IMG/VR virus record: IMGVR_UViG_3300017989_000071 | Location: 32,001 to 96,000 of that record | Length of the DNA: 64,000 bases | Strand: one strand, 5' to 3' | DNA from: a virus | In this document: one piece after another, positions 31,657 through 47,786 of the stretch | Position numbering within the stretch: position 1 is the stretch's first letter | Layout: each line of letters begins with the position of its first letter | Notes under the pieces: generated by a model | What the model was told of the DNA's origin: nothing | The model's input: the letters and a program-made list of their open reading frames with translations, nothing else | Database searches by the model: none | Position numbers and translations under genes: made by a program

Positions 31657-31703
31657 CGCTCACCTGTTTGTATCATGCAAGGTTCCGTGTCTTCCGTAAC
31701 ACA

Positions 31704-31745
31704 GGCGACCCACCGCCGAACGAGGAGTAAGTACGATGGGCCGCC
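31704..31745 (-). ncRNA. leader stem-loop displaying anti-RBS CUCCUCGUUC (candidate antisense RNA)
   Basis: 12-bp stem GGCGGCCCAUCG/CGGUGGGUCGCC (two G.U pairs that work only on the minus strand) and 18-nt loop UACUUACUCCUCGUUCGG. Confidence 0.6.
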
Positions 31746-31763
31746 CCACAAAAGGTAAGACCG

Positions 31764-31792
31764 ATAATACCTCGGTCGTTAGGGGTTGTCAA
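31764..31792 (-). promoter_or_regulatory. sigma70-type promoter of primase/polymerase operon
   Basis: TTGACA-17 nt-TATTAT. Confidence 0.7.
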
Positions 31793-32286
31793 GCGAAATC
31801 TTCCTCCTTCTGAGAAATCGCCACGAAGCGGTTATCCCCGAGAATCCAGCCGATCCCTCCCTTAACGGTGGACCAGTCCAGCTCCCCAGCACCGCATCCG
31901 GGCCGGGGCAGCCAAACCTCGTCGTATTCCTCCCACACCCGGAGAACCTTCACCTTCTCGACGAGCTGTTTGGCACTACGGATAATCAGGTCCATATCGG
32001 AAGGGAGTCGCCACTCGTATTTGGTTGGAAAACTGAATAAATCGGCTTTCCGGGAGGGGTGGGGTCCGTAAACACCGCGTAGGTCGTGGACGACGTTACC
32101 CACTGAAGAGATCATCCCCCCAAGAACGCGGTCGATGCCGGGATACCGTTCGGCGGCTGCTCGCGCACACCCCCGGCCCATCACCGCCGTCCCGTCCGAG
32201 TGGATTTCGCCGTTCGTCGTAATGCACCGCAGAACGATCTGCCCCTCGGGTGGAACGGACCAAAGATCGGTTGCTCGCTCACGCAT
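31789..32286 (-). CDS. DarG/TARG1-like macrodomain (ADP-ribose glycohydrolase)
   Basis: TTNG...VMGRGCA, FSFPTKYEWR, LPRPGCGAGELDWSTVK. Confidence 0.82.
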   Translation of the reverse strand: MRERATDLWSVPPEGQIVLRCITTNGEIHSDGTAVMGRGCARAAAERYPGIDRVLGGMISSVGNVVHDLRGVYGPHPSRKADLFSFPTKYEWRLPSDMDLIIRSAKQLVEKVKVLRVWEEYDEVWLPRPGCGAGELDWSTVKGGIGWILGDNRFVAISQKEEDFA

Positions 32287-32515
32287 TGGACTCTCCGGCC
32301 AGCCGAGCGGCCTCGCGCAGAGCAGGGTAAGACTTACGTACCTGAATCGCTCCGTCGGAAAACGCAGCCACCAGATCGCGAAGGAGTGCGCTCACGTTCC
32401 CCTCGTAGTCGGTAACCTCCTCGGCCACCTCTTCGATCCGGTCCCGGACGCTCCTCCCGATCACCGATTGAATCCGTACACTGTCCTCGCCTTCGAGAAC
32501 TCGTCGTCGTGGCAT
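32279..32515 (-). CDS. RHH-like DNA-binding protein
   Basis: VRIQSVIGRSVRDRIEE...NVSALLRDLV. Confidence 0.5.
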   Translation of the reverse strand: MPRRRVLEGEDSVRIQSVIGRSVRDRIEEVAEEVTDYEGNVSALLRDLVAAFSDGAIQVRKSYPALREAARLAGESNA

Positions 32516-32563
32516 ACGCCTTCTCCATCTCTGCTCCCACGCATTTTGTTAGTAGATAAAGTA

Positions 32564-33265
32564 TCATCCCGTTTCCGCCTCTCCCCCGTCGTCTTCCTCT
32601 TCCACCGAATACACGTTGGCGAGGGCATTCCGAACGCGCTCGCGCAACGGCTCGTTGCTCGACCCAATGACCGATCCGGGGTGAACCGGCGCATGGCTCT
32701 CGTCGTCGATCCAGTGCTCGGCGAGATCGGCCAGAATCCGCAGGCCGTCCGCGCCGCTGACCTCTTGCTTGTACCCCTCGAAGCCGATGGCCTCGTAGAG
32801 GGGAATCCAGTGCTCGTCGTAGAAGTTGTAACCGGCCCCGTCCACACAGATGAAGACGCCGACGGCATCGTCCTCGCACACCCGGACGTTCGCCTTCTCG
32901 GCCAGCTCTTGCGCCCGGCTCCGGAGAATCGACTCCATCGCCGAATCGTCGGCGACGAAGAGGGTGCCCCACATCGGGGGATCGCGGAACAGGGTCAGCT
33001 CGCTCGCCTCGAACACCTCGTCGGGATCGTTCGGGCACCGCACCTGATCGATATACTCGTCGGTCGGATGCTCGACCGCCTCGAACTCCTCGCGGTCGAA
33101 CTCTTCTCCGCAATTCGGACAGGTACGGGTCGCCGCACCCAACACCGTGACGCGATCATACCAGTCCTCGGTCGGAATGGTATCCTGCTTGACGAAAGAA
33201 AAGTCGCGGTCCATCCACGCCTCGACAGCGGCCCGCTTCGTTGCATACCTCGGAAACCTCTTCAC
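32564..33265 (-). CDS. conserved hypothetical early protein
   Basis: GTG start behind GAACGAGGAG; PMWGTLF...VDGAGYNFYDEHWIPLY. Confidence 0.65.
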   Translation of the reverse strand: MKRFPRYATKRAAVEAWMDRDFSFVKQDTIPTEDWYDRVTVLGAATRTCPNCGEEFDREEFEAVEHPTDEYIDQVRCPNDPDEVFEASELTLFRDPPMWGTLFVADDSAMESILRSRAQELAEKANVRVCEDDAVGVFICVDGAGYNFYDEHWIPLYEAIGFEGYKQEVSGADGLRILADLAEHWIDDESHAPVHPGSVIGSSNEPLRERVRNALANVYSVEEEDDGGEAETG

Positions 33266-33279
33266 GTTATTCTCCTCGT

Positions 33280-33684
33280 TCAGTACGGTTCGCATTCCCA
33301 GAGCAGGGTCTCGAAGGCCGTATCGCCCACGAGCTCCTTCAGCTCCTTCGTTTGGTTCTCGGTCGCTTCGTACCGGCGGACGGAATCTTCCCGATCATCC
33401 CACGGGTCGAAGCCCAGATCGTCACACCACTCCTCGAAGGAGCTGGCGTTCTCGATAGTCACCGCATCGAGAGCAAGGCACGACAAAACATCCGCCGCCT
33501 CGGGGGAGCGTTTCCACCCAGTCCCCGTGCTGAAGTGGATGGTCATAGACTCCCGCGACCCTTCTCCCCCGGAGACGGTCACCGTGTAATGGTTCCCCGC
33601 TCCCGGCCAGAAGGGATTCACCTCATCGGTCCGGTCAGCCTCGACCTTGATACCGTGTTGTTCGATAAAGTCTTGAATCGTCAT
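33280..33684 (-). CDS. conserved hypothetical early protein
   Basis: MTIQDF...DVLSCLALDA...FEEWCDDLGFD; own promoter. Confidence 0.65.
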   Translation of the reverse strand: MTIQDFIEQHGIKVEADRTDEVNPFWPGAGNHYTVTVSGGEGSRESMTIHFSTGTGWKRSPEAADVLSCLALDAVTIENASSFEEWCDDLGFDPWDDREDSVRRYEATENQTKELKELVGDTAFETLLWECEPY

Positions 33685-33709
33685 GTCGTTGTCCTCGTTC
33701 ATGTAGCGT

Positions 33710-33738
33710 ATGATAATATCTTTCGAGTACGTTGTCAA
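33710..33738 (-). promoter_or_regulatory. early promoter, shared class
   Basis: TTGACA-ACGTACTCGAAAGATAT-TATCAT. Confidence 0.8.
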
Positions 33739-34037
33739 GCCTTTTTTGTGCGATCTTCGTTCGGAGCGCGATACCAATCGTTAAGGGTACAGGTACACCC
33801 CTCGCCGATTGCCATCATCCGCGCCAGCTTCGAGTCGGCCCCGTGATCGAGGATCAACTGGCAGTAATGTCGTTGATCCTCCTCGGACCAGACCAACCCC
33901 CGGCAAGGCGGTTCGACCGGCTCGTTGCACTCATAGAACTCGATGCCCAGAGCGCACACCTGCTTCACGCAGCAGAAGCCGCAACCGACGCAGGGGGGAT
34001 AACCCCCCTTGTCGTAGATCGTCGGAAAGTCCGTCAC
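33735..34037 (-). CDS. CxxCxxCC (YkgJ-like) Cys-rich protein
   Basis: CVGCGFCC...PPCRGL...YCQL; GTGA coupling to ardC. Confidence 0.55.
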   Translation of the reverse strand: MTDFPTIYDKGGYPPCVGCGFCCVKQVCALGIEFYECNEPVEPPCRGLVWSEEDQRHYCQLILDHGADSKLARMMAIGEGCTCTLNDWYRAPNEDRTKKA

Positions 34038-34957
34038 GCCGCTTCCTCCTGATCGTCTTCGTCTTCCTCTTCGGCGGACTGAGCCGCGAGGATCAGGTCC
34101 GCCGCCTTCTGCGCCTGAGCCGCCGCGTAGACCAGCAGCTTCCGGTCGTCCTTCAACTTCGCGAGCCAATTCTTGATGTAGGCCGCGCTGTTGTCGATCA
34201 CCACGTTCTCGATCCCGCAGAACCCGCACAGGCAGCTCGCGCCCAACTCGGCGACCAGCTCCTCCTGAGAGTAATTGTTGCCGCCGAAACCGTCGTGCTC
34301 GACCAAGCTCTTCCGGTTGAGACGATCCTTGTGGCCGGTCGAATGGGAGAGCTCGTGAAACAGGGTGGAGTAGAACGCCTCGGAAGTCTTGAAGTGCTCC
34401 GGCTTCGGGCAGCCGATGTAGTCGGTACCCGCGATATAAAAAGCGTGGCTCCCGCCGAACTTGATCTCCGGCTTCTCTTCCCAGCCGTCCACCACCCGAC
34501 CGCACACCTCGATAGGGGTGAAGTCCGCGCTCGGCTTCGCCGCCTCGGGAATCCGGTCTTCCAGACCGTCGCACTGCTCGACGTTGAACACGGTGTAGTA
34601 GCGCAGCAGGGGAATCTTGTCCACAATCGGCTCCCCCTTCTCGTTGGTCTGGCCGGTCTCTTTTTCGAGAATGCGCCAGAACACGACCGGGGTACCGCGC
34701 TCGCCCTTGCGAACCTGACCGCCAAGGGTCTTGGCCTGCTTGTAGGTCACCCACCACGGCGTCGCGTAACCCGAACCCAGCAGCAACCAGACGTTGATGC
34801 CGCGATACGGCTTCTTGCTCACGAGATTGCGGTGGAAACCGCCGCCGCCCGGAACCGACCACGGCTTCTGCCACGGCACCACACCCTGCTCCAGCAGCGC
34901 GATAATCCGATCCGTCACGATCTCGTATACGTCTTTTTTGGATTTCGTCTTAGCCAT
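34034..34957 (-). CDS. ardC: ArdC-like antirestriction protein (ssDNA-binding plus zincin domains)
   Basis: VTDRIIALLEQGVVPWQKPW, YRGINV, YYSTLFHELSHSTGH, YSQEELVAELG, SAAYIKNWL. Confidence 0.92.
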   Translation of the reverse strand: MAKTKSKKDVYEIVTDRIIALLEQGVVPWQKPWSVPGGGGFHRNLVSKKPYRGINVWLLLGSGYATPWWVTYKQAKTLGGQVRKGERGTPVVFWRILEKETGQTNEKGEPIVDKIPLLRYYTVFNVEQCDGLEDRIPEAAKPSADFTPIEVCGRVVDGWEEKPEIKFGGSHAFYIAGTDYIGCPKPEHFKTSEAFYSTLFHELSHSTGHKDRLNRKSLVEHDGFGGNNYSQEELVAELGASCLCGFCGIENVVIDNSAAYIKNWLAKLKDDRKLLVYAAAQAQKAADLILAAQSAEEEDEDDQEEAA

Positions 34958-34992
34958 TTTATTCTCCTCGTTCGTTTGTCAGTCTCAATCGT

Positions 34993-35021
34993 ATTATATT
35001 ACCTTTCGAGTACGATGTCAA
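34993..35021 (-). promoter_or_regulatory. early promoter, shared class
   Basis: TTGACA-TCGTACTCGAAAGGTAA-TATAAT. Confidence 0.85.
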
Positions 35022-35062
35022 GAGTATTTTTCGACTTTTTTCGTTTTCCCCTAAAATCCAAG

Positions 35063-35100
35063 AAAAACCCCCGATGCCAGCGTGGGAGCGGCACCGGGGG
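35063..35100 (-). terminator. intrinsic terminator
   Basis: CCCCCGGUGCC/GGCAUCGGGGG stem, 11-nt loop, UUUUU tail after helicase. Confidence 0.75.
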
Positions 35101-35141
35101 TCGGGCCGGTGAGAGCGGAAGAGGAAGTTGACCCCCACCGG

Positions 35142-36470
35142 CTATTCTGCCTCGCCCTCGTCCTTGCGCGTCGCATCTTCGAGAATCGAGGCCCGTTTGT
35201 AATCGGAGCGCGTATACACGCGGTACTGGCTCTCTGCGCGACGGAACTTGTCAACCCAGATGTATTCTTTATTTACTGTAAGAATTATGTCGGCCTTGTT
35301 TGTCTTCTGCGAACTGTTGGCGACGTTGAACTGGCTGAGCTGCACCTTCCTCGGATTTCCGTACAAGGTCTTGCGGCTGATCTGACTCGGAGCGATCACG
35401 ACCGCCTTGACCTCCTTCGCCAAGTCCATCAAGGAATCGTAAATCTCCCCCATCGTCGAATACATCTGCTCCCCGGTCCCGCCGCGAAGCTGATCGGGAT
35501 AGTCCACGACAACCATCGAAGGGGAGACATTGTACCGGGCCATCGCCGCCGTCACGTGAGATCGTATCTGCCCGAAGCGCGTCTTCCCCGGCGGAAACTC
35601 CTTGACCAATATCTGCTTCGACCCCAGACCCATCTCCTTGAACCGCTGCTCGTAGAGGGCAGACCCCTTCACGATCTCGTGCATCGCCACCCCCGACAAT
35701 TTCGAGGCATAACGCAGCAGCACATCGTGCTCGTTCAGATCGCCAATCGTGTAATGGAAGACCACCCCGTTACGCCGTGCCTCGAAAGCCGCGAGGTTCA
35801 CGGCCAGCATCGACTTCCCGCCACCGCTGAACCCGAGGATCACGACCAGCTCGCCCTTACCGAATCCTCCGTAGGATCGCTCGTTCAATGTGGGAAACGG
35901 AGTCAATACCCGGCCATCCGGGTTGTAGGAAGTCTGCCGCAGAATCTCCGGAAGGTCGGCCCCCACCTCGGACATCCGCGTCCCGATATTCGCCACGTCG
36001 TCCCCGACCCGACTCGCCGTCTGCAACCATTCGAGATAATCCGAAGCGTGGCTCCGCTCCTCGGGGGGCAGCATCAGCTCTTCGGCAATCCGGGCGACCG
36101 CCTCCCTCTCGGCGCAGTCCTTGGCGAACTGGATAACCTGCGTGCGGATATAGACTTCGTCGGTCAGGTCCGCTTTCGTGTAAGCGTAGTCGATCTCCTT
36201 GATCGCCCCCTCGATACTCTCGTTCGGCAACCCGTGCTGCCTTGCCCAACTCTCCAGCGCGACAACCATGCTGTCCCGCGTCGGAACCTGCCCGTGCTCG
36301 TCGTAGTGGTTGAGCGCGATACGAGCAAGGGGGACCAGCAGATCGTGCGCAAAATAGGCCGAGTCGATTGCATCGCGAAAGTGGACGAGAAACATCGGAT
36401 CGCGGACGATCAGGGCAAATATCTTGCGCTGGAATCCGAGACCGAACGGGTATTTTCCATGCCCCTCCAT
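35142..36470 (-). CDS. DnaB-like replicative helicase
   Basis: GELVVILGFSGGGKS, MVVVDYPD, APSQ, ADIILTVN; start re-called at MEGHGK. Confidence 0.87.
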   Translation of the reverse strand: MEGHGKYPFGLGFQRKIFALIVRDPMFLVHFRDAIDSAYFAHDLLVPLARIALNHYDEHGQVPTRDSMVVALESWARQHGLPNESIEGAIKEIDYAYTKADLTDEVYIRTQVIQFAKDCAEREAVARIAEELMLPPEERSHASDYLEWLQTASRVGDDVANIGTRMSEVGADLPEILRQTSYNPDGRVLTPFPTLNERSYGGFGKGELVVILGFSGGGKSMLAVNLAAFEARRNGVVFHYTIGDLNEHDVLLRYASKLSGVAMHEIVKGSALYEQRFKEMGLGSKQILVKEFPPGKTRFGQIRSHVTAAMARYNVSPSMVVVDYPDQLRGGTGEQMYSTMGEIYDSLMDLAKEVKAVVIAPSQISRKTLYGNPRKVQLSQFNVANSSQKTNKADIILTVNKEYIWVDKFRRAESQYRVYTRSDYKRASILEDATRKDEGEAE

Positions 36471-36754
36471 CACCGGGGAACGAACTCGTCGCCAACCTGC
36501 GCGGCGTAGTAGTCCCGCCACGCCCGAATCTCAAGGCGATTCGAGGGGTGGGAAAGAAGACGCCGATAAGCCAGCCGGTCTAACTGAAATCCGACCGCTT
36601 CCTCCAGCTCGGCAACGGCCTCGTTGATGCCTCCCTCCTCATCGGGTACGAACTCCCCCGCCAGAGAACAATCGACCCGAATGGACTCGAACTCTCCGAT
36701 ATTGAGGGTCACCCCGGAAGACACACTGATCCTGTCGATGTTTACTTTGGGCAT
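36470..36754 (-). CDS. hypothetical protein
   Basis: GVTLNIGEFESIRVDC; TGATG coupling to helicase. Confidence 0.6.
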   Translation of the reverse strand: MPKVNIDRISVSSGVTLNIGEFESIRVDCSLAGEFVPDEEGGINEAVAELEEAVGFQLDRLAYRRLLSHPSNRLEIRAWRDYYAAQVGDEFVPR

Positions 36755-36786
36755 TGCAAGGCTCCCTTCACTGCTTTGTGTGTAAA

Positions 36787-36897
36787 CTATTTACCAGCCA
36801 AGAACCGCAGAACCCACAACGCTCCCTTGTAGAGAACATGCAGGGTCAGGCCGATCACCAGACTGCAAATCACGATTCCGGTCGTACTCATTTCCAT
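36787..36897 (-). CDS. small membrane protein (36 aa)
   Basis: MEMSTTGIVICSLVIGLTLHVLYKGALWVLRFLAGK; GAGGAG SD. Confidence 0.5.
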   Translation of the reverse strand: MEMSTTGIVICSLVIGLTLHVLYKGALWVLRFLAGK

Positions 36898-36930
36898 GTG
36901 GATTCTCCTCTTCCTTCGATTGACCCGCCG

Positions 36931-37812
36931 CTAGGCTCCCACGCCCGGCAGGTTGAGAGGTTGAGGGAGACGGAAGCCAGCCGCATGACGGTGACCCCCG
37001 CCCCCATAACCTTTGGCGACCTCGGACACGTCCATGCCCCGGTCGTTACTCCTGAGTGAATACAGGTAGTCCCCCTCGCGTGTCTGAAACCAGACAACCG
37101 CAAAGGGGCGATCCTCGGCCAACCTGTTACCGACCTCCGACATGTGGATCGAAGCGCAGCAGGTGGGCACAACCGCAGTCCCCGCCCTTCCATTCCCGCG
37201 CAAAGGGAACTCGACATCCCTTGCGTTTTCGACTGCTTGATCGACGATCTTGTTCCGGTATCGCAGAAGAAGTTTCCCGCGCTCGATCAGGTCTTCGAGG
37301 CCGTTGTTCATCATGTTCGTGGACAACTCCTCCCAGACTCCAAGCTCACGCTCGGTCACCCAGATCAGCGCGTTTACCGCCTCGCTGTCGGGCATCTCCC
37401 ACCTCCAGAGATCGCGATCCTCGACGTAATCGACGATATAGGGCCGTGGCGTATCGGGATTGAAGTAATCCCACGCCAGCCCGCAGCCGGATCGGTTCAT
37501 GTCGAACGTACAGAAGGGCAAACCCTCACAATTCGCCCTCGCCGTCTTGTGGTGATCGAAGACCAGAAGCCCGGCGGCTTCCTCCTGCATCCGAAGCAGA
37601 CTCTCGCGGGGATAGCTGAAGTCGAAGATCAGGACAAACTTCCCGGCCAGATTTTGCGGCGGCCCCTCGCCGTACTTCGCGAAGATCACTTCGTAGGGGA
37701 TTCCGGTTTCTCGCAGATGCCGATGTGCGACCCACGCCGCCGTGAACCCGTCAGCGCAATTCGCGTGAGAGATCACCAGCACCTCCCTTGCGTTGTCCGG
37801 CAGCTGAAACAT
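36931..37812 (-). CDS. DHH/DHHA1 phosphoesterase
   Basis: HANCADG, FDFS, FDHHKT, GGGGHRHAAGF. Confidence 0.85.
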   Translation of the reverse strand: MFQLPDNAREVLVISHANCADGFTAAWVAHRHLRETGIPYEVIFAKYGEGPPQNLAGKFVLIFDFSYPRESLLRMQEEAAGLLVFDHHKTARANCEGLPFCTFDMNRSGCGLAWDYFNPDTPRPYIVDYVEDRDLWRWEMPDSEAVNALIWVTERELGVWEELSTNMMNNGLEDLIERGKLLLRYRNKIVDQAVENARDVEFPLRGNGRAGTAVVPTCCASIHMSEVGNRLAEDRPFAVVWFQTREGDYLYSLRSNDRGMDVSEVAKGYGGGGHRHAAGFRLPQPLNLPGVGA

Positions 37813-37829
37813 GTAGATCACACTCCTTT

Positions 37830-38137: not shown

Positions 38138-38143
38138 CGTAAT

Positions 38144-39064: not shown

Positions 39065-39074
39065 CCTCTTCTCC

Positions 39075-41243: not shown

Positions 41244-42225
41244 TGGACACCTTCGCTTTCACCTCCTGAGCGAGCATGGTCGCACCGACAACCGCCCCCT
41301 GCTTCACATCGTCCCGGTGAGCCATCAGGATCGCCGAAACGAGCTGGAGCTTCGAGAGGAAGTTAGCCGCCACATCGCGGGCCTCCTCTTCGTACTCCCC
41401 TTTGTTGGACAGCAGATCGGACACCTGAGCCGGAGAAATCCCCGTTTCCGCATCGGCACCTATGATCTCGTTGATGGCCGTGTGCGCCTCGTTCAGGAGC
41501 TTGGCGGTAACAACCCCCAAGTCGTAGACCAGCTTGGCCCGTGTTACGTCGTCCGCCACATCGTCGATCCTCGACTCGTCAACCATCAGGTTCTCGTCGC
41601 ACGGGAGCGGCACGTGTACCGGAACATGGTTGCCGCCGGGGCAGATAATGTAGATGTAGGGGCTGGCCCCGTCCTTCGTCCTTGCCACCCCGAGCTGTCC
41701 CCCTTCAAGCAGCCCGTCAATCTGTTTGTGAACCTCTTCCCAAATTGCATCGGCGACCTCTTCCTCGCTGAGCACGCGGTCGTCCGATTCGTTCGTGGAA
41801 GAATCCTCCCCCTCCGACGAGGAGTGCAAGGTTCCGGAGGGAGAGGTAGAAGAACGCTTCGCCGCCTGTTGGGCGGTTTTATTCATGTAGTAACGATCCT
41901 TGTTGATCCAGACCCGACCGTCGCGGGCGAGGTAGTGGATGCCCTTGGCGTCCCGCCCGTAGTAAGTCGCCCCGTAGGACACGATCTCGATCTCGATTCC
42001 CCACAAACCCAGCCCGTGATCCGGCGTACCGGGAGCCTGCCAGAACAAGCCCTTCAGCCGTACCGCCTTCTTCGGGATTTTTCCAGCCTTCGTTTGGTTG
42101 AACGGCACTCGGCGGTAGAAGTGGGCGTAGCTTCCCCCGTCCTCATGGGTTTCCCACATGACGATGATGGAGGGGGCTTCGTTGAAGCGGTCCCCCCGGA
42201 ACGTAGTGTGTTTGGTAAAGGCCAT
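41233..42225 (-). CDS. two-domain hypothetical early protein
   Basis: ATG behind GAACGAGGAG; Ser-rich linker containing an RNA hairpin. Confidence 0.6.
   Translation of the reverse strand: MAFTKHTTFRGDRFNEAPSIIVMWETHEDGGSYAHFYRRVPFNQTKAGKIPKKAVRLKGLFWQAPGTPDHGLGLWGIEIEIVSYGATYYGRDAKGIHYLARDGRVWINKDRYYMNKTAQQAAKRSSTSPSGTLHSSSEGEDSSTNESDDRVLSEEEVADAIWEEVHKQIDGLLEGGQLGVARTKDGASPYIYIICPGGNHVPVHVPLPCDENLMVDESRIDDVADDVTRAKLVYDLGVVTAKLLNEAHTAINEIIGADAETGISPAQVSDLLSNKGEYEEEARDVAANFLSKLQLVSAILMAHRDDVKQGAVVGATMLAQEVKAKVSNAN
41806..41845 (-). ncRNA. intragenic stem-loop with 18-nt dual-motif loop
   Basis: 11-bp stem CUCUCCCUCCG/CGGAGGGGGAG; loop GAACCUUGCACUCCUCGU. Confidence 0.5.
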
Positions 42226-42239
42226 TGTTCTCTCCTCGT

Positions 42240-42695
42240 TCAGGAAGTCAGGGCGTTGGCCGGACGTTGCTCGGCTTTTTCCAATTCCCGGATCGCGCTC
42301 CGTTGCAGATCGGGGACGTAGCAATTCTCGTAGGGGTCCGTCGGATCGTCGTAGATGCACATTCCGATGGAGTCCGCGTGTTCCCACTCCCCGGTAAACG
42401 GATCGAGGTACAGGGCGACCACAAACCAGCAGCCAAACCGCTCGATCCATTCCTCGATTTCCTTCCGCTCCTCTTCCGGACTTACCCGGCGACCGTAGCC
42501 GTTGACGTACCCTTCCGGCTCGCCGTAGATCGACCAGTAGTTTTCGCATTCGGGGTCGGCGACGATCTTGACCCGGCCTTCCGCTTCGAGCTCCTCGAAG
42601 CGAGCGAGGGTCTTGGCGTTGCGGAGTGCCCACACCGCTTGGTCCCACCCGTACTCCCGAAAGTTGCGGTAGTATTTTTCGATTTTCGGATTCAT
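42240..42695 (-). CDS. hypothetical early protein
   Basis: GAGCGAGGAG RBS; EWEHADSIG motif. Confidence 0.6.
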   Translation of the reverse strand: MNPKIEKYYRNFREYGWDQAVWALRNAKTLARFEELEAEGRVKIVADPECENYWSIYGEPEGYVNGYGRRVSPEEERKEIEEWIERFGCWFVVALYLDPFTGEWEHADSIGMCIYDDPTDPYENCYVPDLQRSAIRELEKAEQRPANALTS

Positions 42696-42720
42696 CGTTC
42701 TCTCCTCGCTCGTTGCTGTA

Positions 42721-44091
42721 TCAGGCCACCTCGACGGCCTTGAACTTGCAGCGGTTCACCACCGTCTGCTTCAGACCCTTGTACTCGCCGTGCGCCTTGA
42801 CGGTCCCTGTCAGGATCACCTTCGTACCCTTGGGGGTGTCGTCCGGCGCACAGCCCGTCTTCCAGACCAGCACGTTTCCGTCCTCGGTCACGTAATTGTG
42901 GACGTAGAGCTCGCCGTAGGCGGTATCGAACGGACCGGACACGCGGTCGATGGTCACCTCCCACGACTCCCGCTTTCCCACCTCGCCGATATGCTCGGAG
43001 TGGGCCTTCTTCTCTTCCCACTCGGCCCGACGAACGCGGCTGAGGTAGGCACCGACCGCGCTCACCGCCAGACCCACCAGATTCCGGGGAATCAGGCTCA
43101 GGTTCGACACCACGGTCAGATTGTACTCGTAATCGTTCTCGGTCTCCGGGTCGATGCCCTCAACCCACTCCAGAACCTTCGCCGCCAGCTCACGGTCCTC
43201 GTCGCGGACCGGGGCGAAGGTGGAGACGTTAGCGGCCAGACGATTGATCTCTTCGTTCCACTCGTTGACTGACTCCTTCAGGGCATCAAACGTCTCGGGC
43301 TTAACGGCATTGACATTGTTCCACACGTCCACGATAGCCCAACGACGATTCGCGATTTTTTTGATGGCCGGGAGATAGGTCTTCTCGTTGAACTCCAGTA
43401 GGGAGAGGGTGTGGTTGCGGGTCGTATCGACATTGCGGTTGTCGAACTCCCACGCCGTCCGGGCGCGATCCAGATTGAAGTAGCCGCGCTGCTCACGAAC
43501 CGAAGCAGCAGCAAAAGTCAAAACCTCCTCGAAGGTTCCAACGTAGTCCGCTTCTCGTTTGATGCGGCCACTGCCAAGAGCATAGCTCTCGTCGTCTTCA
43601 AGGCTTTCGGAGAGGGACCAGACTACCTCGGCCCACTTCGCGGCCTTGTGCGCATTGGCATCGCCGGTATAATCCTGCAAACATGTCGATCCGACTTGCT
43701 TCCGCTCACCATCCGAACCTTCAAGGATGAACGTGGCTTTGCGGCTCCGCTTCAGGTTGCAATGCTCGCAGCGTTCGGGGGTTTTGCGGTAGGGGCGGAT
43801 GTCGCCAGCGTTCGCACCGCTGATAAAAACCGCATCATCCACCACCCGGACCGATCCGATCACCGTCCAGTCGCCCAGCGGGGCGAGATCGGCGGTGACA
43901 GTTACGGCGTACAAACAAACCTCGTGCCGGAAACCGTCTTCATCTTCCACGATTTCGATAAGGGAATCACCGACTTCGTAACCCACAGGAGCAAAATTAT
44001 ACCTCACGGAACGGCGGTTGATGGCGTCGATCTTCTTCCTGAAACCGGGTAGGTTCCGGGAATCGATTTTGTAGTCTTTCGTGATTTTCAT
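42721..44091 (-). CDS. early protein with Zn-binding motif and C-terminal OB-fold
   Basis: CEHC...QVGSTCL; HIGEVGKRE...GNVLVWKT...LTGTVKAHGEYKGLKQTVVNRCK. Confidence 0.7.
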   Translation of the reverse strand: MKITKDYKIDSRNLPGFRKKIDAINRRSVRYNFAPVGYEVGDSLIEIVEDEDGFRHEVCLYAVTVTADLAPLGDWTVIGSVRVVDDAVFISGANAGDIRPYRKTPERCEHCNLKRSRKATFILEGSDGERKQVGSTCLQDYTGDANAHKAAKWAEVVWSLSESLEDDESYALGSGRIKREADYVGTFEEVLTFAAASVREQRGYFNLDRARTAWEFDNRNVDTTRNHTLSLLEFNEKTYLPAIKKIANRRWAIVDVWNNVNAVKPETFDALKESVNEWNEEINRLAANVSTFAPVRDEDRELAAKVLEWVEGIDPETENDYEYNLTVVSNLSLIPRNLVGLAVSAVGAYLSRVRRAEWEEKKAHSEHIGEVGKRESWEVTIDRVSGPFDTAYGELYVHNYVTEDGNVLVWKTGCAPDDTPKGTKVILTGTVKAHGEYKGLKQTVVNRCKFKAVEVA

Positions 44092-44116
44092 CTCGTTCTC
44101 CTCGTTCTTCATTGTC

Positions 44117-44152
44117 AATCATATTATAATATCATTCGAGTACGTTGTCAAG
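44117..44152 (-). repeat. 36-nt exact direct repeat (promoter unit), copy 1
   Basis: aatcatattataatatcattcgagtacgttgtcaag, identical to 45398-45433. Confidence 0.9.
44123..44151 (-). promoter_or_regulatory. early promoter, shared class
   Basis: TTGACA-ACGTACTCGAATGATAT-TATAAT. Confidence 0.88.
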
Positions 44153-44169
44153 CTCTTTTTTCGCGCAAT

Positions 44170-44197
44170 AAAAAAGCCGGGGAAATCCCGGCTTTTT
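44170..44197. terminator. bidirectional intrinsic terminator
   Basis: aaaaaa-gccggg-gaaat-cccggc-ttttt. Confidence 0.85.
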
Positions 44198-44218
44198 CGG
44201 TATCACCTCCTTCCCCTG

Positions 44219-44710
44219 TTACAGGATCGCTTCACCCGCCCGGACCTTCTCGATCAGCGGCTTCAGGAACGACTCACGAGTCGGGCTGTCATCCCAACTG
44301 GACCGGTCCAGATCGCTGATTTCGCGAACGATGTGCTCGTCGTTGCAGGCGATCAGAATCGCCCGAACTTCGAGGGAGATGTCGCGGTATCCGGTATCTT
44401 CCTCGTCGAGGGTGTGGTACAGGTTCTTCCCTTTCCGATCCGTAAACTTCCCGTCATCCCCATAATCGCCACAGAGCACAATGCGGTTCCCCGCCCAGCG
44501 ACCAGCGATATTGTTCTTCGGATGAAGGTTTTCGAGCTCGTGGATGTCGCCCCCACCACGCCCGTTGCCGTCGGCCAGCAGAATCGCCAGCGCGGAGAGT
44601 AGCCCCCCGCTATTCGCAACCAGCTCCCACAGCTTCGCGCCGTCACCCAAGGCCCACGCATTGAGGTATTCGTGCTTGTCGAGATTGGCTACCTTGTAGT
44701 ATTGACCCAT
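44219..44710 (-). CDS. conserved hypothetical early protein
   Basis: MGQYYKVANLDKHEYL...GAKLWE; GAACGAGGAG RBS. Confidence 0.7.
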   Translation of the reverse strand: MGQYYKVANLDKHEYLNAWALGDGAKLWELVANSGGLLSALAILLADGNGRGGGDIHELENLHPKNNIAGRWAGNRIVLCGDYGDDGKFTDRKGKNLYHTLDEEDTGYRDISLEVRAILIACNDEHIVREISDLDRSSWDDSPTRESFLKPLIEKVRAGEAIL

Positions 44711-44762
44711 GATGTTCTCCTCGTTCTTCGGTTATCGTTTTGCCCCCGGACCGGCGCGGCGG

Positions 44763-45368
44763 TCAGGCCGCGCTGGATTCCGGAATCGGCTCCGCAAGAA
44801 TCTCCACGATATTGCTGTGGGGAATCTTGTAATACGAAATTTTCTTGCCGTCCGCGTCGAGCGCGAACCCGAAGACCCGCGTCGTCGTCCGCTTCTTCCC
44901 GTTGCGGCACCGAGTCAACTTGTCGATGTCGCAGATCAGGAAAACGGTGTGGGTGTACTTGTCCTTCAGGCGGACCCGCTGCCCGGCCTTCAAATCGCTC
45001 ACCTTGACCTTGCGGCGTTTCGATTCGTGATAGGCCAACACCTTGTCGCGCCACTCCTGATTCGTGACCGGAGCCAGATCGAGCAACCGCTTCGGGCAGT
45101 TATAATAAAAGGGACCAGCCGCCTCGTCGATGTCCTTGTAGCCCCAGCGGCCCCCGCTCTTGCGAAGCAGGTAGAGGATCAGAAACCGCTCGGCCTCGTC
45201 CTCGATTCCGGTCGCCTTGTCGAAACGGCCCCAGACCACCCACAGGTGGGAGCCGACCAGCGATTTATCGACGACCTTGCGGAAGTAAGGACGATCCAAC
45301 GGCTCCCACGAGCGCGTCACCTCGTCGATCACTTCCTGCTTCGTTTCATGTCCAAAAAGCCATCCCAT
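44763..45368 (-). CDS. DUF6927-like protein (also seen in plasmid/ICE leading regions)
   Basis: MGWLF...WGYKDIDEAAGPFYYNCP. Confidence 0.65.
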   Translation of the reverse strand: MGWLFGHETKQEVIDEVTRSWEPLDRPYFRKVVDKSLVGSHLWVVWGRFDKATGIEDEAERFLILYLLRKSGGRWGYKDIDEAAGPFYYNCPKRLLDLAPVTNQEWRDKVLAYHESKRRKVKVSDLKAGQRVRLKDKYTHTVFLICDIDKLTRCRNGKKRTTTRVFGFALDADGKKISYYKIPHSNIVEILAEPIPESSAA

Positions 45369-45397
45369 GTTATTCTCCTCGTTCTTCGTTATCGTCT

Positions 45398-45433
45398 AAT
45401 CATATTATAATATCATTCGAGTACGTTGTCAAG
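45398..45433 (-). repeat. 36-nt exact direct repeat containing early promoter 45404-45432, copy 2
   Basis: Identical to 44117-44152. Confidence 0.9.
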
Positions 45434-45751
45434 AGCTTCCTCCTCGGCTTTTCGGTCCGCTGCATCTTCTCGTTGTTCTTTTCGGCGAATAATCTCACGT
45501 ATTTTATCGTCATCCGGTATTCCGTGGTGGTGGGAAATAATATCCCATGTAGCTTGTTCCGGATATCCTGCTTCCCGCATCGCCCGGAAAAACTTATCCC
45601 GGTCTGGTTTTGGGTCTATCTGCCGCAGCGGAATTTCAATATCGTATCTCCTTGGAGAGGGGAGACCACCACAATCCTTATCAAAACGAGTGTTTTGATG
45701 CCGTCGGAGACCGTCGCCTCGTTTGATATAGGTCAGCGCATCGTAAGGCAT
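45413..45751 (-). CDS. hypothetical protein, visibly AT-richer than flanks
   Basis: MPYDALTYIK; last codons (LDNVLE*) lie inside the promoter repeat. Confidence 0.5.
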   Translation of the reverse strand: MPYDALTYIKRGDGLRRHQNTRFDKDCGGLPSPRRYDIEIPLRQIDPKPDRDKFFRAMREAGYPEQATWDIISHHHGIPDDDKIREIIRRKEQREDAADRKAEEEALDNVLE

Positions 45752-45783
45752 GGCTATTTCTTTGTTCGCATATGATCCTCTCC

Positions 45784-46605
45784 TTAGTATCCGAACCGTT
45801 CGGCTTGGGCGGCCTCCTGCGGACAGGGACCGGGATCGACGTGGGCCAACTCCTTCGGCACCTTCGGGAGCGGCTTCCAGCAAGTCGGCGTGGACAATTT
45901 ACACTCCTCCTCGTGGTCGATCCACCACGGCTCCGCGTCGCTGCCGATGAACTCGAAGTACCGCACGACCCGGTATTCCTTGCTGCGGGCGAAGTAGGCC
46001 AGCACGGGATCGCTGTCCTTGACCTTGGTTTCCTCACCCCGGACGTGTCGCGGGATCGGAACCGAGACCTCGGGCTTGCGCCACTCCTCCAGCTCCTTCA
46101 ACCGGTTCTTCAGCTCGGGGTAGGACGGCTCCGGGTTGGCATGGGGATCGAAGCCCCAGCCGTTCCGCTGCGATCCGCGCTTCGGGTCGAAGGTCACCCG
46201 GTCGATGACGTACTCGACGCTGTTGTGGATGTGGTCACCGTAGTAGTCGGCGTTGAATCCCCAATACTTCCGCTTGTTGCCGACACGCCCTTTCAACTTC
46301 CCCCCGAGACCGAGCAGGATATGCCCCTCGGAAACGGTGTAGGTCAGATCGAAGTAGGAATACCCGTCGTACCCACCGTACTCGTCCATGTCATGATGGC
46401 TGGCCGAAATGACCACCGCCGTCACGAAGCACTTCTCGTCGTGGCTCAGCAGATCGAAGTATTCATCGGTAGAGCACAGCCCCCGGCCCTTGATCCGGAT
46501 GCCGATCCCCTCGCACGAGAACCCCCCGCCACCGATCTGATCGTACAGAGCGTTGATGATCTTGTGGTTCAAGAGGTGTACTTGAAAGGTGCGAATGCTG
46601 TTCAT
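45784..46605 (-). CDS. hypothetical early protein with DUF551-like C-terminus
   Basis: ATG behind GAACGAGGAG; C-terminal TCWKPLPKVP. Confidence 0.6.
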   Translation of the reverse strand: MNSIRTFQVHLLNHKIINALYDQIGGGGFSCEGIGIRIKGRGLCSTDEYFDLLSHDEKCFVTAVVISASHHDMDEYGGYDGYSYFDLTYTVSEGHILLGLGGKLKGRVGNKRKYWGFNADYYGDHIHNSVEYVIDRVTFDPKRGSQRNGWGFDPHANPEPSYPELKNRLKELEEWRKPEVSVPIPRHVRGEETKVKDSDPVLAYFARSKEYRVVRYFEFIGSDAEPWWIDHEEECKLSTPTCWKPLPKVPKELAHVDPGPCPQEAAQAERFGY

Positions 46606-46628
46606 GTCGTTCTCCTCGTTCAAATTGT

Positions 46629-46877
46629 TTATTCGGCGAAGGATTCCCCGAGCAACGCCTCGAAGAATGCCACCCGTGCCTCGGCTCGATGTTTCATCTC
46701 TTCCGCCAGTAGCTTGAACATCCTCCCCCGCAAAATCTCTTTTTTGTATTCCGGACCACCGGACTTCAGCACCTCCTCGTACTCCGGGAGGTACCGCTCT
46801 TCGTACTCCCGAGCGGATTCGCGAGCGAGAGCGAGGTGGCCTTCGACCTTCTCGATTTCCTTGGCAGTCATTGTCAT
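46629..46877 (-). CDS. helical hypothetical early protein
   Basis: GAACGAGGAG RBS; own promoter. Confidence 0.6.
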   Translation of the reverse strand: MTMTAKEIEKVEGHLALARESAREYEERYLPEYEEVLKSGGPEYKKEILRGRMFKLLAEEMKHRAEARVAFFEALLGESFAE

Positions 46878-46906
46878 TCTCCTCGTTCGTTGTCATTGCT
46901 AATCGT

Positions 46907-46935
46907 ATGATAATACCTTTCGAGTACGATGTCAA
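46907..46935 (-). promoter_or_regulatory. early promoter, shared class
   Basis: TTGACA-TCGTACTCGAAAGGTAT-TATCAT. Confidence 0.82.
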
Positions 46936-46936
46936 G

Positions 46937-46964
46937 AAAAAAAAAGCCGGGGTCGATCCCCGGC
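46937..46964 (-). terminator. intrinsic terminator
   Basis: GCCGGGG/CCCCGGC stem followed by U9. Confidence 0.85.
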
Positions 46965-46969
46965 CTCTT

Positions 46970-47260
46970 CTACTTGAGATATTCGTCTGCGTACCGGGAC
47001 CAGTCCTCGTAGCTCAGGGTCTTGGCCCACCCCCGACAACCCTCCTCACTGGCCCATAGCCAATCGGCGAACTGGAAGGAGGTGGTGGCCGTCTGGTACT
47101 TGGCCCGGCTCTTCGAGATCACTTCGAGCTTCACCTTCTTCCTGCCGATGGCGATCACCTGACCGTGCCGGACCCGTGCGCCGTGGCGGGGGTCGTACCC
47201 CCCACCCACCCACCAGACCTTCAGGCCGGGGCGCACCTCTTGATTGTCTCTCGTCTGCAT
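46970..47260 (-). CDS. hypothetical protein (SH3/KOW-like)
   Basis: VRPGLKVWWV...GQVIAIGRKKVKLE. Confidence 0.55.
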   Translation of the reverse strand: MQTRDNQEVRPGLKVWWVGGGYDPRHGARVRHGQVIAIGRKKVKLEVISKSRAKYQTATTSFQFADWLWASEEGCRGWAKTLSYEDWSRYADEYLK

Positions 47261-47274
47261 CGTGGTCTACCTCC

Positions 47275-47598
47275 CTAGTTGTGCTTAATCGAGTACGTCA
47301 CCCGCTCGACGGTGAAACCGCTGTCCGGGTTGTTCGGATACTTCTTCTTCGTCTCCACCTTCCGGACGATCTTCATGCCCGGCTGGAAGTCGAACTCGTT
47401 CTCGTCCCGGTTGTGGGGCGACACTCGCGGCTCGACGTAGCCGCCCCCGAAACTGATCGTTACCGCCCAACGGTTAGCGAGCAACACGTGCTCCTCGCCG
47501 CGCCTCTCGATCCGGAACGGCCAGTCGTGTTTCCCGAGTAAGCGGGAGCCGCACAGCGGGTCGTTCAGGATCATCGTTTCGGTCTTGGGATTCTTCAT
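47275..47598 (-). CDS. hypothetical early protein
   Basis: ATG behind GAACGAGGAG. Confidence 0.6.
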   Translation of the reverse strand: MKNPKTETMILNDPLCGSRLLGKHDWPFRIERRGEEHVLLANRWAVTISFGGGYVEPRVSPHNRDENEFDFQPGMKIVRKVETKKKYPNNPDSGFTVERVTYSIKHN

Positions 47599-47632
47599 TT
47601 TTGTCTCCTCGTTCAGGTTGACAGGTACTCGT

Positions 47633-47661
47633 ATTATACCACGATTCGAGTACGATGTCAA
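47633..47661 (-). promoter_or_regulatory. early promoter, shared class, within an inverted repeat
   Basis: TTGACA-TCGTACTCGAATCGTGG-TATAAT; downstream CGAGTACCTGTCAA is its near mirror. Confidence 0.85.
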
Positions 47662-47664
47662 GCT

Positions 47665-47746
47665 AAAAAAAAAAGCCCGCCGACTTTGGGGAGCCGACGG
47701 GCTTTGTCTGTTCGTGCGGATGGGGTCCGCACCGGAACCTTGCACC
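47665..47746 (-). ncRNA. candidate small RNA of about 80 nt (promoter-seed-hairpin-terminator)
   Basis: 5' GGUGCAAGGUUCCG, hairpin GUGCGGA-CCCCA-UCCGCAC, terminator GCCCGUCGGCU-CCCCAA-AGUCGGCGGGC-U10; no AUG. Confidence 0.72.
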
Positions 47747-47750
47747 GAAT

Positions 47751-47779
47751 ATGATAATCCGATGCGTTTTCGTTGTCAA
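47751..47779 (-). promoter_or_regulatory. sigma70-type promoter of the candidate sRNA
   Basis: TTGACA-17 nt-TATCAT. Confidence 0.78.
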
Positions 47780-47786
47780 CTCAACG

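Follow-up and report, generated by a model that had tools for sequence, protein, structure and literature searches.

We propose that an uncultured, virulent-type phage related to T4 encodes a genuine trans-acting small RNA (sRNA) together with two hub RNAs, and that these may mediate cross-talk between its early genes and its replication and late genes. We give this explanation a probability of about 40%. The underlying network of RNA motifs is real and non-random at the sequence level, and from it we infer a function and a direction.

The virus record is 117.6 kb long (a 118-kb phage), is ~91% complete and has ~137 called genes, all on the minus strand, here called the coding strand. Coordinates refer to the window, the whole 64,000-nt stretch of that record. 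The evidence base is one near-clonal genome, whose nearest primase relative shows 32% identity. IMG/VR searches gave no match to the sRNA seed and scattered single matches only to the promoter-spacer motif, and two distant loci (L001 and L002, 42-45% GC) held no leader comparable to the replication leader. Public assemblies break at the repeated terminator-promoter cassettes of the early region, and the public runs listed as containing the phage included no RNA run.

A first-pass annotation had read these elements as a possible reciprocal circuit, an early-to-middle switch with the replication leader as target of the sRNA, early ribosome-binding sites (RBSs) as targets of the leader and a CsrA-like protein as a further arm. 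Every sequence feature it described was found where it had placed it, which confirms the observation. Its interpretation survives in part: the sRNA, the anti-RBS loop and the linkage of the motifs are supported, the 'reciprocal' character, the temporal order and the CsrA arm are not.

A candidate small RNA unit and its predicted targets

47784..47824, minus strand: 16-bp hairpin terminating the upstream gene's transcript
47751..47779, minus strand: sRNA promoter, TTGACA-17-TATCAT, matching 11/12 consensus positions
47664..47745, minus strand: candidate trans-acting sRNA, ~82 nt, from a predicted start at 47745 +/- 2 to the U-run
47732..47745, minus strand: 5′ seed GUGCAAGGUUCCGG, mostly single-stranded in the unpaired profile
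47662..47705, minus strand: intrinsic terminator of the sRNA, 13/14-bp stem and U10

The sRNA contains no AUG and no ORF of its own; the sole ORF across it is a GTG read-through artefact that passes over both the terminator and the promoter that follows. A scan of the 30-49.5 kb region gave nine promoters with 11 or more of the 12 consensus positions, all of them on the coding strand. The predicted fold runs from a single-stranded 5′ end through a 7-bp hairpin to the 13/14-bp terminator stem and U10, with a folding z of -4.1 against shuffles. With a promoter, an intrinsic terminator and no ORF, the element has the layout of an independent transcription unit, as expected of a trans-acting sRNA, and is a credible candidate for such a regulator. 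Rfam returned no family for the sRNA; the best Rfam hit reached 23 bits, against gathering thresholds of 40-80, and the weak matches of the sRNA to ar14 (22 bits) and sX13 (15 bits) fall far below threshold.

The 47784..47824 hairpin and the sRNA promoter form a composite like the PeSLs, the terminator/early-promoter cassettes of T4-type phages (PMC2839356, PMC4122927). This arrangement of a stem-loop or terminator followed by an early sigma-70 promoter is repeated through the early region (stem-loop/promoter pairs at 47824/47779, 47705/47661, 46971/46935, 44198/44151 and 35102/35021, minus strand). As with T4-type PeSLs, the composites flank small early genes, and the sRNA unit lies between two of them. 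PeSLs have been described as cassettes that serve recombination and regulation and have not been put forward as sources of regulatory RNA.

31675..31687, minus strand: sRNA site in the replication leader, 12 perfect pairs and one G.U, 21-33 nt upstream of the primase AUG
13285..13300, minus strand: sRNA site of 16 pairs, 3 of them G.U, within the short 5′ UTR of a gene for a DinG-type helicase (promoter 13342-13314)
54276..54302, minus strand: two sRNA sites ahead of the endolysin gene, one a perfect 10-mer (54292-54301), the other GGAGACUUGCAUG, located at the start codon
18987..18996, minus strand: sRNA site of 10 perfectly paired nt, at codon 25 of the gene for the large terminase
36755..36765, minus strand: GGAGCCUUGCA abutting an AUG, 11 pairs with the seed, one G.U

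The claimed match between seed and leader holds: sRNA nucleotides GUGCAAGGUUCCG are a perfect 12-nt complement of 31676-31687, inside the primase 5′ UTR, and pair over 13 nt if one G.U is allowed. Corrected for accessibility, this site reaches -13.8 kcal/mol, the best among 11 sites, compared with a minimum of -10.8 kcal/mol among 150 random windows. Other complements recur through the genome, with the GGAGCCUUGCA box found again at 4555-4565 and GGAAUCUUGCA at 39448-39458, and those near start codons have unrelated flanks. The 10-mer seed complement GGAACCTTGC has five coding-strand copies, mostly near start codons, against 0.13 expected, and occurs on the other strand only in the sRNA gene. 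Five translation-start regions pair with the seed with an energy of -22 kcal/mol or lower, where shuffled seeds give 0.53 such regions; none of 300 shuffles reached five, and random windows give 1.6-2.0. Half of the six perfect seed sites fall within -40..+30 of a start (P = 0.009). Throughout, the motif length and window size behind the motif statistics were chosen post hoc. An accessible seed and an excess of targets enriched at translation starts are what would be expected of an sRNA.

The seed and the leader loop described below also stand out among intergenic sequences. Of 10,557 intergenic positions, nine have a 10-mer complement that occurs at least five times on the coding strand; the seed and the loop are two of these nine, and the loop is the most extreme of all. 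Between the leader and other transcripts, background complements of 10-12 nt are common, and three further 12-mers were found.

The replication leader and a second hairpin

31764..31792, minus strand: promoter of the primase/DNA-polymerase operon, TTGACA-17-TATTAT
31657..31757, minus strand: replication operon leader RNA, ~100 nt
31703..31746, minus strand: hairpin 1, 14-bp stem and 16-nt loop (31717-31732), with CUCCUCGUUC at 31718-31727
31685..31704, minus strand: hairpin 2, 7-bp stem and ACGGAA loop (31692-31697), its 3′ arm overlapping the sRNA site
30661-31656, minus strand: primase gene, PHROG 47, 331 aa
27569-30661, minus strand: family-A DNA polymerase with UDG domain
47605-47614, 46879-46888, 46612-46621, 45375-45384, 44717-44726, minus strand: exact GAACGAGGAG at the first five early starts
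44098-44107, 42232-42241, 34964-34973, 33272-33281, minus strand: exact GAACGAGGAG at the last four early starts
41805..41846, minus strand: intragenic hairpin, 13-bp stem and 16-nt loop, inside gene 41233-42225
24654..24947, minus strand: ORF with a sub-threshold CsrA-like C-terminal domain

The primase start at 31656 is supported because homologues cover 97% of the 331-aa protein. Hairpin 1 had been described as an anti-RBS element, and this description stands. Four G.U pairs in its stem make it strand-specific (-27.2 kcal/mol when folded as the minus strand, -15.0 kcal/mol as the plus strand), and its loop, 11/16 pyrimidines, is exposed, with an unpaired probability of 0.71-0.74. The loop sequence CUCCUCGUUC is the exact complement of GAACGAGGAG, a box with ten coding-strand copies, nine of them 16-17 nt before a start codon; on the plus strand GAACGAGGAG occurs once, as this loop. 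The nine boxes are identical and their flanks differ, which favours the view that the box is recognised as a whole. On thermodynamic grounds the loop could pair with each of the nine early starts, at predicted net energies of -9 to -16 kcal/mol; a generic 16S anti-SD duplex gives -8.9 kcal/mol, a figure not corrected for accessibility. The loop presents a pyrimidine-rich motif complementary to the Shine-Dalgarno (SD) regions of several mRNAs. It does not form a free-standing anti-SD small RNA: no terminator lies between the leader hairpins and the primase start and the second copy of the element lies inside a coding sequence.

The same loop holds ATCGTACT, a motif elsewhere confined to promoter spacers. 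Its five coding-strand copies all lie upstream of genes; four directly follow TTGACA, and the fifth is ~25 nt into the primase leader, beside the inverted RBS box. This hints at a DNA-level origin for the leader copy. Read on the plus strand, the inverted box has an ATG and an ORF of 25 codons behind it, an arrangement that resembles a stranded gene start.

Hairpin 2 is part of the minimum free energy fold for two of three assumed start sites, and in predicted folds it comes apart if the sRNA site is kept unpaired, with the anti-RBS loop left untouched. With the sRNA bound, predicted accessibility of the primase translation start shifts by only -2 to +0.4 kcal/mol, and folding of the bound leader did not discriminate between repression and activation of primase translation. 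The ACGGAA loop had also been proposed as a CsrA site. The hairpin is present in the leader, but ANGGA occurs 661 times on the coding strand, once per ~178 nt, so the loop carries little information and is at chance level as a CsrA site. The primase SD (AGGUGA) lacks GGA, and the leader therefore does not combine loop and SD GGA motifs beyond chance, as a CsrA-regulated leader would. ORF 24654-24947, the supposed CsrA-like protein, scores 25.6-26.1 bits against Pfam CsrA (PF02599), below the cut-off of 27 (E about 1e-5), and its sole PDB match is RsmE (2jpp) at E = 0.6, with the Arg of its VHREE motif aligned opposite VRVE. The one protein that an exhaustive HMMER search brought up is a repeat protein of 992 aa that lacks a CsrA signature. 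Membership of the CsrA/RsmA family is borderline.

The strongest evidence for a link between the two kinds of motif is the hairpin at 41.8 kb, which carries both in one loop. A perfect 14-nt sRNA complement (41824-41837) and an anti-RBS-like CUCCUCG(U) (41817-41824) overlap there by one base. The sites for the sRNA and the anti-RBS motifs are statistically linked because both recur in this hairpin: of the three CTCCTCGT sites on the coding strand, two have an sRNA site no more than 60 nt away (P = 9e-5 under random placement, post hoc). None of the other CTCCTCG sites, 17 in all, is as exposed as the copy at 41.8 kb (unpaired probability 0.92) and the one in the leader (0.74); the next reaches 0.69. 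The two hairpins are also built alike, with a 13-14-bp stem and a 16-nt loop containing ACUCCUCG. The 41.8-kb motif lies within a Ser-rich coding linker, where TCC TCG codons alone could yield CUCCUCG.

Competing explanations

The full model of the first-pass annotation, in which an early sRNA acts on the leader, the leader then switches off nine early RBSs and a CsrA-like protein reads the ACGGAA loop, giving an RNA-driven early-to-middle switch, seems to us very doubtful. All of its pairings are physically plausible by predicted energy, the sRNA is predicted to melt the ACGGAA hairpin, and the T4 protein machinery for the early-to-middle transition is absent: homologues of MotA, AsiA, RegA and RegB, sought in the ~91% complete record, gave no match at E <= 10. 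Against this, near-consensus host sigma-70-type promoters precede the sRNA, the leader and the 'early' genes alike, so the sequence gives no order and nothing marks the leader as 'middle'. The CsrA evidence given above weighs against the model too. 'Reciprocal' is a misnomer, since the leader would act on the sRNA by titration at most. Further, one leader faces nine abundant early mRNAs, an unfavourable stoichiometry for a trans repressor that also counts against our own explanation. Possible, if on the unlikely side, is that the features are independent. The sRNA would then use ordinary seed pairing at the primase leader and other starts, and the hairpins would be cis elements (a 5′ stabiliser, a pyrimidine-rich S1 or standby site, or an operator for a phage protein), their complementarity to RBSs being functionless. 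In T4, gp43, gp32 and RegA bind their mRNAs at translational operators, and replication genes are a translationally autoregulated class. The leader precedes genes of this class, the architecture shared by both hairpins, including ACUCCUCG, resembles protein operators, the loop is rich in pyrimidines, and loop and sRNA site are structurally independent in the leader. What this leaves unexplained is the full 10-nt match between the loop and the most repeated box of the genome, and the co-occurrence of that motif with sRNA sites; nor was a RegA homologue found.

It appears less likely again that the elements are evolutionary relics with no RNA function, the sRNA unit being an emptied early cassette between two PeSL-type composites and the leader loop an inverted cassette scrap (RBS box plus promoter-spacer motif) whose complementarities are by-products. 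The early region does consist of repeated terminator-promoter cassettes with near-identical spacers, at which public assemblies break, and PeSLs mediate indels in T4-type phages (PMC4122927). The distribution of ATCGTACT, with four of five copies in promoter spacers and one beside the inverted box, and the plus-strand box with its ATG and ORF would also fit. Decay would not account for the minus-strand specificity that four G.U pairs give the hairpin, for the excess of seed complements near start codons in unrelated flanks, or for a second hairpin with both motifs. Highly improbable, in our view, is a link at the DNA level, in which the leader's (C)ATCGTACT would serve as operator for the DNA-binding regulator of class-I early promoters, so that a protein and not RNA would control the replication operon together with the early genes. 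The placement of all five copies upstream of genes favours it, but ATCGTACT is an 8-mer, for which base composition predicts about one chance copy per strand. It offers no role for the adjacent inverted RBS box or the G.U-dependent stem, and no candidate regulator was identified.

Known systems and proposed function

The candidate sRNA resembles the RybB/OmrA-type sRNAs of Gram-negative bacteria and lambda PreS in having its own promoter, a Rho-independent terminator, a long U tail and no ORF. The seed likewise occupies the very 5′ end, and several targets are located at translation starts or close by. PreS/LPR1 is a 5′-seed phage sRNA that acts on a replication function via a 5′ UTR (bioRxiv 10.1101/2024.10.31.621285). 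The candidate sRNA has no sequence or Rfam relationship to these RNAs. Further, known phage 5′-seed sRNAs come from temperate phages and have mainly host targets, whereas all targets predicted here are the phage's own genes. C/U-rich anti-SD loop motifs are presented by Xanthomonas sX13, S. aureus RsaE and alphaproteobacterial ar14, and M. tuberculosis 6C likewise has a C/U-rich anti-SD motif in its hairpin loops. The 6C motif is described in PMC6486639. As in these RNAs, the phage motif is a pyrimidine-rich hairpin loop complementary to purine-rich SD regions of many mRNAs. Unlike 6C, sX13 and RsaE, which match generic G-rich SD sequences as free sRNAs, it sits in an mRNA leader and a coding region and matches a phage-specific 10-nt box.

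A device directed against a motif common to early ribosome-binding sites has a parallel in T4 RegB, an endoribonuclease that inactivates early mRNAs at GGAG in the SD (PMC9409239) and helps the transition from early to later expression. RegB is a protein nuclease without a homologue here; the proposed agent is an RNA loop, and its effect is putative. The target transcripts also resemble RNA sponges, transcripts with a site that titrates a regulatory RNA encoded at another place in the phage genome, as suggested for lambda LPR2 and PreS (bioRxiv 10.1101/2024.10.31.621285). In contrast to that pair, each hub RNA here offers sites to two different partners, and one of the hubs lies in protein-coding sequence.

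In the explanation that we favour, host RNA polymerase would transcribe the sRNA from its consensus promoter, and the strong terminator would end the transcript. The single-stranded seed would pair with a limited number of mRNAs of the phage itself: the primase/polymerase leader as the best target, the 5′ UTR of the DinG-type helicase, the endolysin and terminase starts, and several unknown genes. What the sequences show is the anatomy of the elements, the complementarities with their strand specificity and excess over chance, and the co-occurrence of the motifs; we infer from them that the RNAs are made and pair in vivo, as we do the sign of each effect and any timing. Two of the targets, the replication leader and the hairpin inside gene 41233-42225, would serve as hubs, each displaying the complement of the nine early genes' 10-nt box in a large loop on a long G.U-containing stem. 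Because the hubs display both motifs, each would have two possible RNA partners, the sRNA and the early-gene translation starts, and the one-base overlap in the 41.8-kb loop would make these pairings mutually exclusive there. The most likely function would be post-transcriptional cross-talk between the early set and the replication and late genes, through competition for the hubs.

The candidate sRNA and its predicted targets

The virus record is 117.6 kb long with 58.9% G+C, and a gene call based on codon usage and ribosome-binding sites (RBSs) places 137 of 137 genes on the minus strand, in agreement with a uniformly negative GC skew. Between the candidate sRNA (about 82 nt; 47664-47745, minus strand) and the leader, a 5′ RNA of about 100 nt belonging to the primase/DNA-polymerase operon (31657-31757, minus strand), lie numerous orphan genes and a set of replication or early-type genes: a family-A DNA polymerase with a UDG domain, primase, a DnaB-like helicase, ArdC, a DHH phosphoesterase and an SF2 helicase. 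A T4-type portal gene is located farther along the genome.

Promoters and perfect complements of the sRNA seed
47779-47751, minus strand: sRNA promoter, TTGACA-17-TATCAT, a consensus match
31792-31764, minus strand: leader promoter
13314-13342, minus strand: DinG-type helicase promoter, TTGACA-18-TATAGT, giving the gene a 5′ UTR of about 45 nt
41824-41837, coding strand: perfect seed complement, 14 nt
31676-31687, coding strand: perfect seed complement, 12 nt
54292-54301, coding strand: perfect seed complement, 10 nt
18987-18996, coding strand: perfect seed complement, 10 nt
13288-13297, coding strand: perfect seed complement, 10 nt
65352-65361, coding strand: perfect seed complement, 10 nt

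The sRNA promoter belongs to a set of nine between 30 and 49.5 kb with 11 or more of 12 consensus positions matched, nine of nine being on the coding strand; at a looser criterion (at least 9/12), shuffled sequence yields only about five sites. The approximately 82 nt downstream contain no AUG; in the predicted fold the 5′ end is free, and a 7-bp hairpin precedes a 13/14-bp terminator stem and U10. Because the upstream gene ends in a 16-bp hairpin and a consensus promoter directly follows the sRNA terminator, the unit sits between two terminator/promoter composites resembling the PeSLs described in T4-type phages (PMC4122927). Searches of Rfam at gathering and permissive thresholds assigned the sRNA to no family. 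A mechanical 156-aa ORF (47275-47745, minus strand; GTG at 47745) was rejected as an annotation trap: it reads through the sRNA, the terminator and the following promoter, in frame with a real 107-aa gene (ATG 47598).

In the sRNA, the loops of the two hairpins (47714-47733 and 47672-47705, minus strand) each have the sequence CCCCA. Since sX13, 6C and similar sRNAs act through C-rich loops, this RNA may contain a second targeting module, directed at G-rich sites. A 96-aa orphan lying two genes downstream of it (46970-47260, minus strand) scores 17.9 bits against a phage ProQ C-terminal-like domain. The ProQ-like reading was dropped, as the Pfam cut-off is 27 and a single-sequence AlphaFold model (pLDDT 41) was unusable.

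Perfect complements of at least 10 nt concentrate in nucleotides 6-19 of the sRNA, and the other 68 nt give only ordinary background matches of 10-11 nt. The sequence GGAACCTTGC has five coding-strand copies against 0.13 expected under a first-order model, and its sole opposite-strand location is the sRNA gene itself. The excess looks smaller against an empirical null than in this Markov estimate: 255 distinct 10-mers have at least five coding-strand copies, yet only 9 of 10,557 intergenic positions, the seed among them, carry a 10-mer with an equally frequent complement (at least five). The flanks of the seed sites are unrelated, indicating that the sites are not copies of one repeat. When the seed is paired with 136 translation-initiation regions, five predicted duplexes reach -22 kcal/mol or better, compared with 0.53 for shuffled seeds (0/300 reach five) and 1.6-2.0 for random windows. 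Further, three of the six perfect sites fall within -40 to +30 of a start codon (P = 0.009), and variants tolerating G.U pairs lie directly on starts (GGAGCCUUGCA-AUG, twice; GGAAUCUUGCA-GUG; GGAGACUUGCAUG). A codon-usage argument for selection on the sites within coding sequences was set aside as uninformative, TTG accounting for 20% of Leu codons. The predicted target genes include primase, a DinG-type helicase, endolysin and the large terminase. At the centre of the helicase 5′ UTR (13270-13310, minus strand) is a 16-bp seed match (3 G.U), just upstream of the Shine-Dalgarno (SD) sequence.

The primase leader and the intragenic hairpin

The first-pass annotation had proposed that the sRNA seed (47732-47745) targets 31676-31687 in the leader, and this 12-nt perfect complement is indeed the best accessibility-corrected predicted site of eleven. 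With opening energies included, its net energy is -13.8 kcal/mol, stronger than the -10.8 minimum among 150 random coding-strand windows. The extent of the leader depends on the primase start. Homologues cover 97% of the 331-aa product that begins at 31656, making this start, and hence a leader of about 100 nt, a better call than the shorter public one of 239 aa. Net energy and start together sustain the sRNA-leader half of the earlier finding. When the sRNA site is held single-stranded, the predicted energy for opening the primase start shifts by -2 to +0.4 kcal/mol, varying with the assumed ends, which fits repression and activation equally well; in the same calculation a small neighbouring hairpin with an ACGGAA loop (31685-31704, minus strand) is predicted to melt, the outer stem being favoured.

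The sRNA site shares its leader, as had also been proposed, with the anti-RBS hairpin (31703-31746, minus strand), whose exposed loop contains an exact complement of the 10-nt RBS box of nine early genes. Its 14-bp stem, including four G.U pairs, is worth -27.2 kcal/mol on the minus strand versus -15.0 on the plus strand. The 16-nt loop contains CUCCUCGUUC and is predicted to be mostly unpaired (probability 0.71-0.74). There are ten coding-strand copies of GAACGAGGAG, with varying flanks, 9/10 located 16-17 nt before a start codon, and exactly one plus-strand copy, the leader loop; the 10-mer of this loop gives the most extreme value over all intergenic positions. Predicted net pairing of the loop with the nine early starts is -9 to -16 kcal/mol, the comparator being a generic 16S anti-SD duplex of -8.9 kcal/mol that is not corrected for accessibility. 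Throughout the genome, anti-SD-like words are strand-asymmetric (CTCCTC, 28 on the coding strand vs 159 opposite; CCTCC, 71 vs 300), and exposed anti-SD sequences are consequently rare in the phage's transcripts.

The only other exposed anti-RBS copy is a hairpin at 41.8 kb (41805-41846, minus strand), within the gene at 41233-42225, with a 13-bp stem and a 16-nt loop. This loop, AACCUUGCACUCCUCG, comprises the sRNA's best (14-nt) complement and then CUCCUCG(U), with one base shared; here, pairing with the sRNA and pairing with the RBS box must exclude each other. When 17 coding-strand CTCCTCG sites are ranked by predicted exposure, the 41.8-kb site comes first (0.92), followed by the leader (0.74) and the next site (0.69). 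In the leader, the sRNA site and the anti-RBS motif are 33 nt apart and structurally independent. Two of three CTCCTCGT sites have one of six perfect sRNA sites no more than 60 nt away (P = 9e-5 under random placement); motif length and distance were chosen post hoc, but the result still holds after an order-of-magnitude penalty. A functional coupling of the sRNA and the anti-RBS elements finds its main support here. The motifs form a real, non-random network with an inferred function.

Two adjacent long hairpins are also present at 35089-35142 (minus strand), before promoter 35021, one with a CU-rich, anti-SD-like loop (CAACUUCCUCUUCC). Outside the window, a 17-bp hairpin at about -27052 has the loop ...CAACCUCCUCUUC.

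Rival readings, timing and relatives

The leader loop also holds ATCGTACT, part of CATCGTACT at 31728-31736 (minus strand; 5′ arm and loop of the hairpin). It has only five copies on the coding strand, the other four being directly after TTGACA in promoter spacers.

Promoter copies of ATCGTACT
13336, coding strand: promoter copy
34957-, coding strand: promoter of this gene
46871-, coding strand: promoter of this gene
47598-, coding strand: promoter of this gene

Since ATCGTACT stands beside an inverted RBS box, the leader loop looks like a mosaic of promoter spacer and inverted RBS, which fits either a rearranged early cassette as its source or an operator acting at the DNA level. Similarly, the architecture common to the leader and 41.8-kb hairpins would suit a protein operator. 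These rivals cover parts of the pattern, but they do not account jointly for the strand specificity of the stem, the exact match over 10 nt and the co-occurrence of the motif with sRNA sites. A plus-strand gene in place of the leader (31718-31815; RBS box, 8 nt, ATG and 25 codons, running antisense through the leader promoter) was rejected because there is no plus-strand promoter, no other plus-strand gene and a hairpin specific to the minus strand; this 25-codon ORF is probably not expressed.

In seven consensus promoters (33710-47661; 4590-4617, minus strand) the spacer is almost the same, TTGACA-[A/T]CGTACTCGAA..., and short inverted repeats frequently flank the -10 box. This pattern suggests a shared operator or the recent exchange of PeSL-type cassettes. 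The promoter repeats are exactly where public assemblies break (44123-44146, 45404-45427 and 46932-46945).

The annotation had also envisaged a reciprocal early-to-middle switch involving a phage CsrA-like protein, and this part of the proposal is not supported. The sRNA, leader and early genes have near-consensus sigma-70 promoters throughout, the T4 late promoter TATAAATA is absent from both strands, and no homologues of MotA, AsiA, RegA or RegB are detectable in the genome. Consequently, the sequence yields no temporal order, and with the late motif absent, temporal classes are not assignable from promoter motifs. Nothing indicates that the leader acts on the sRNA beyond possible titration, which removes the grounds for calling the circuit reciprocal. 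The ACGGAA loop does exist, but as a CsrA site it carries little weight, given that ANGGA occurs every 178 nt and the primase SD lacks GGA. The supposed CsrA-like protein (ORF 24654-24947, minus strand) scores just under the Pfam cut-off and matches RsmE only at E = 0.6. A k-mer search with this ORF recovered only itself, and an exhaustive search of 1.8 billion representatives found a single other relative, a 992-aa repeat protein (P0078) with six segments matching the ORF and neither a CsrA Pfam match nor a CsrA signature. The domain may be a repeat module instead of a true CsrA.

Sediment and seawater metagenomes from four separate studies contain almost identical copies of the phage (0-1 differences in 18 kb). 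No RNA run is among the public runs listed as carrying it. Contigs from four DNA runs across 31-49 kb have 0-1 differences and none inside the RNA elements, an invariance from which population covariation is not derivable. More distant relatives were scarce: megablast with the 30-48 kb region as query gave no match in the phage collection, and the best match to the primase among 5.8 billion proteins, the phage itself excepted, has 32% identity. Within IMG/VR, the primase search returned two loci (27-29% identity, 42-45% GC), neither with a comparable leader, and a pattern scan for the promoter-spacer motif and seed gave scattered single matches or none.

A possible RNA-only programme in a virulent phage

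To our knowledge, almost all described phage regulatory RNAs come from temperate phages and prophages, with host genes as targets, and little is understood of how virulent phages without T4 MotA/AsiA/RegB order their early, replication and late functions. We speculate that an early sRNA and the RBS box of nine early mRNAs would compete for two hubs, the leader and the intragenic hairpin, and that shifting RNA pools would turn early translation off and release replication and late genes. That a virulent T4-related phage times its programme by such an RNA-only network, in place of RegB and MotA/AsiA, is a long shot, to which we give a probability of roughly 12%.

The sRNA resembles the 5′-seed sRNAs of enterobacteria and lambda PreS, which targets the 5′ UTR of a replication gene (bioRxiv 10.1101/2024.10.31.621285); unlike those, it is predicted to target genes of the phage itself. 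The hub loops recall C-rich loop regulators such as 6C (PMC6486639) but differ in that they lie inside an mRNA leader and a coding region. For targeting of a shared early RBS, the nearest functional analogue is a protein, T4 RegB (PMC9409239).

The system represents a compact test case, with a single sRNA, some ten sites predicted in the phage's own replication, lysis and packaging genes, and two hub hairpins that mirror the RBS box, every pairing being testable by compensatory mutation in a heterologous host, phage culture being unneeded. If the coupling is true, mRNA leaders and coding regions would act as trans regulators within a viral programme, and a loop complementary to a phage's own repeated RBS box would provide a search image for other phages.
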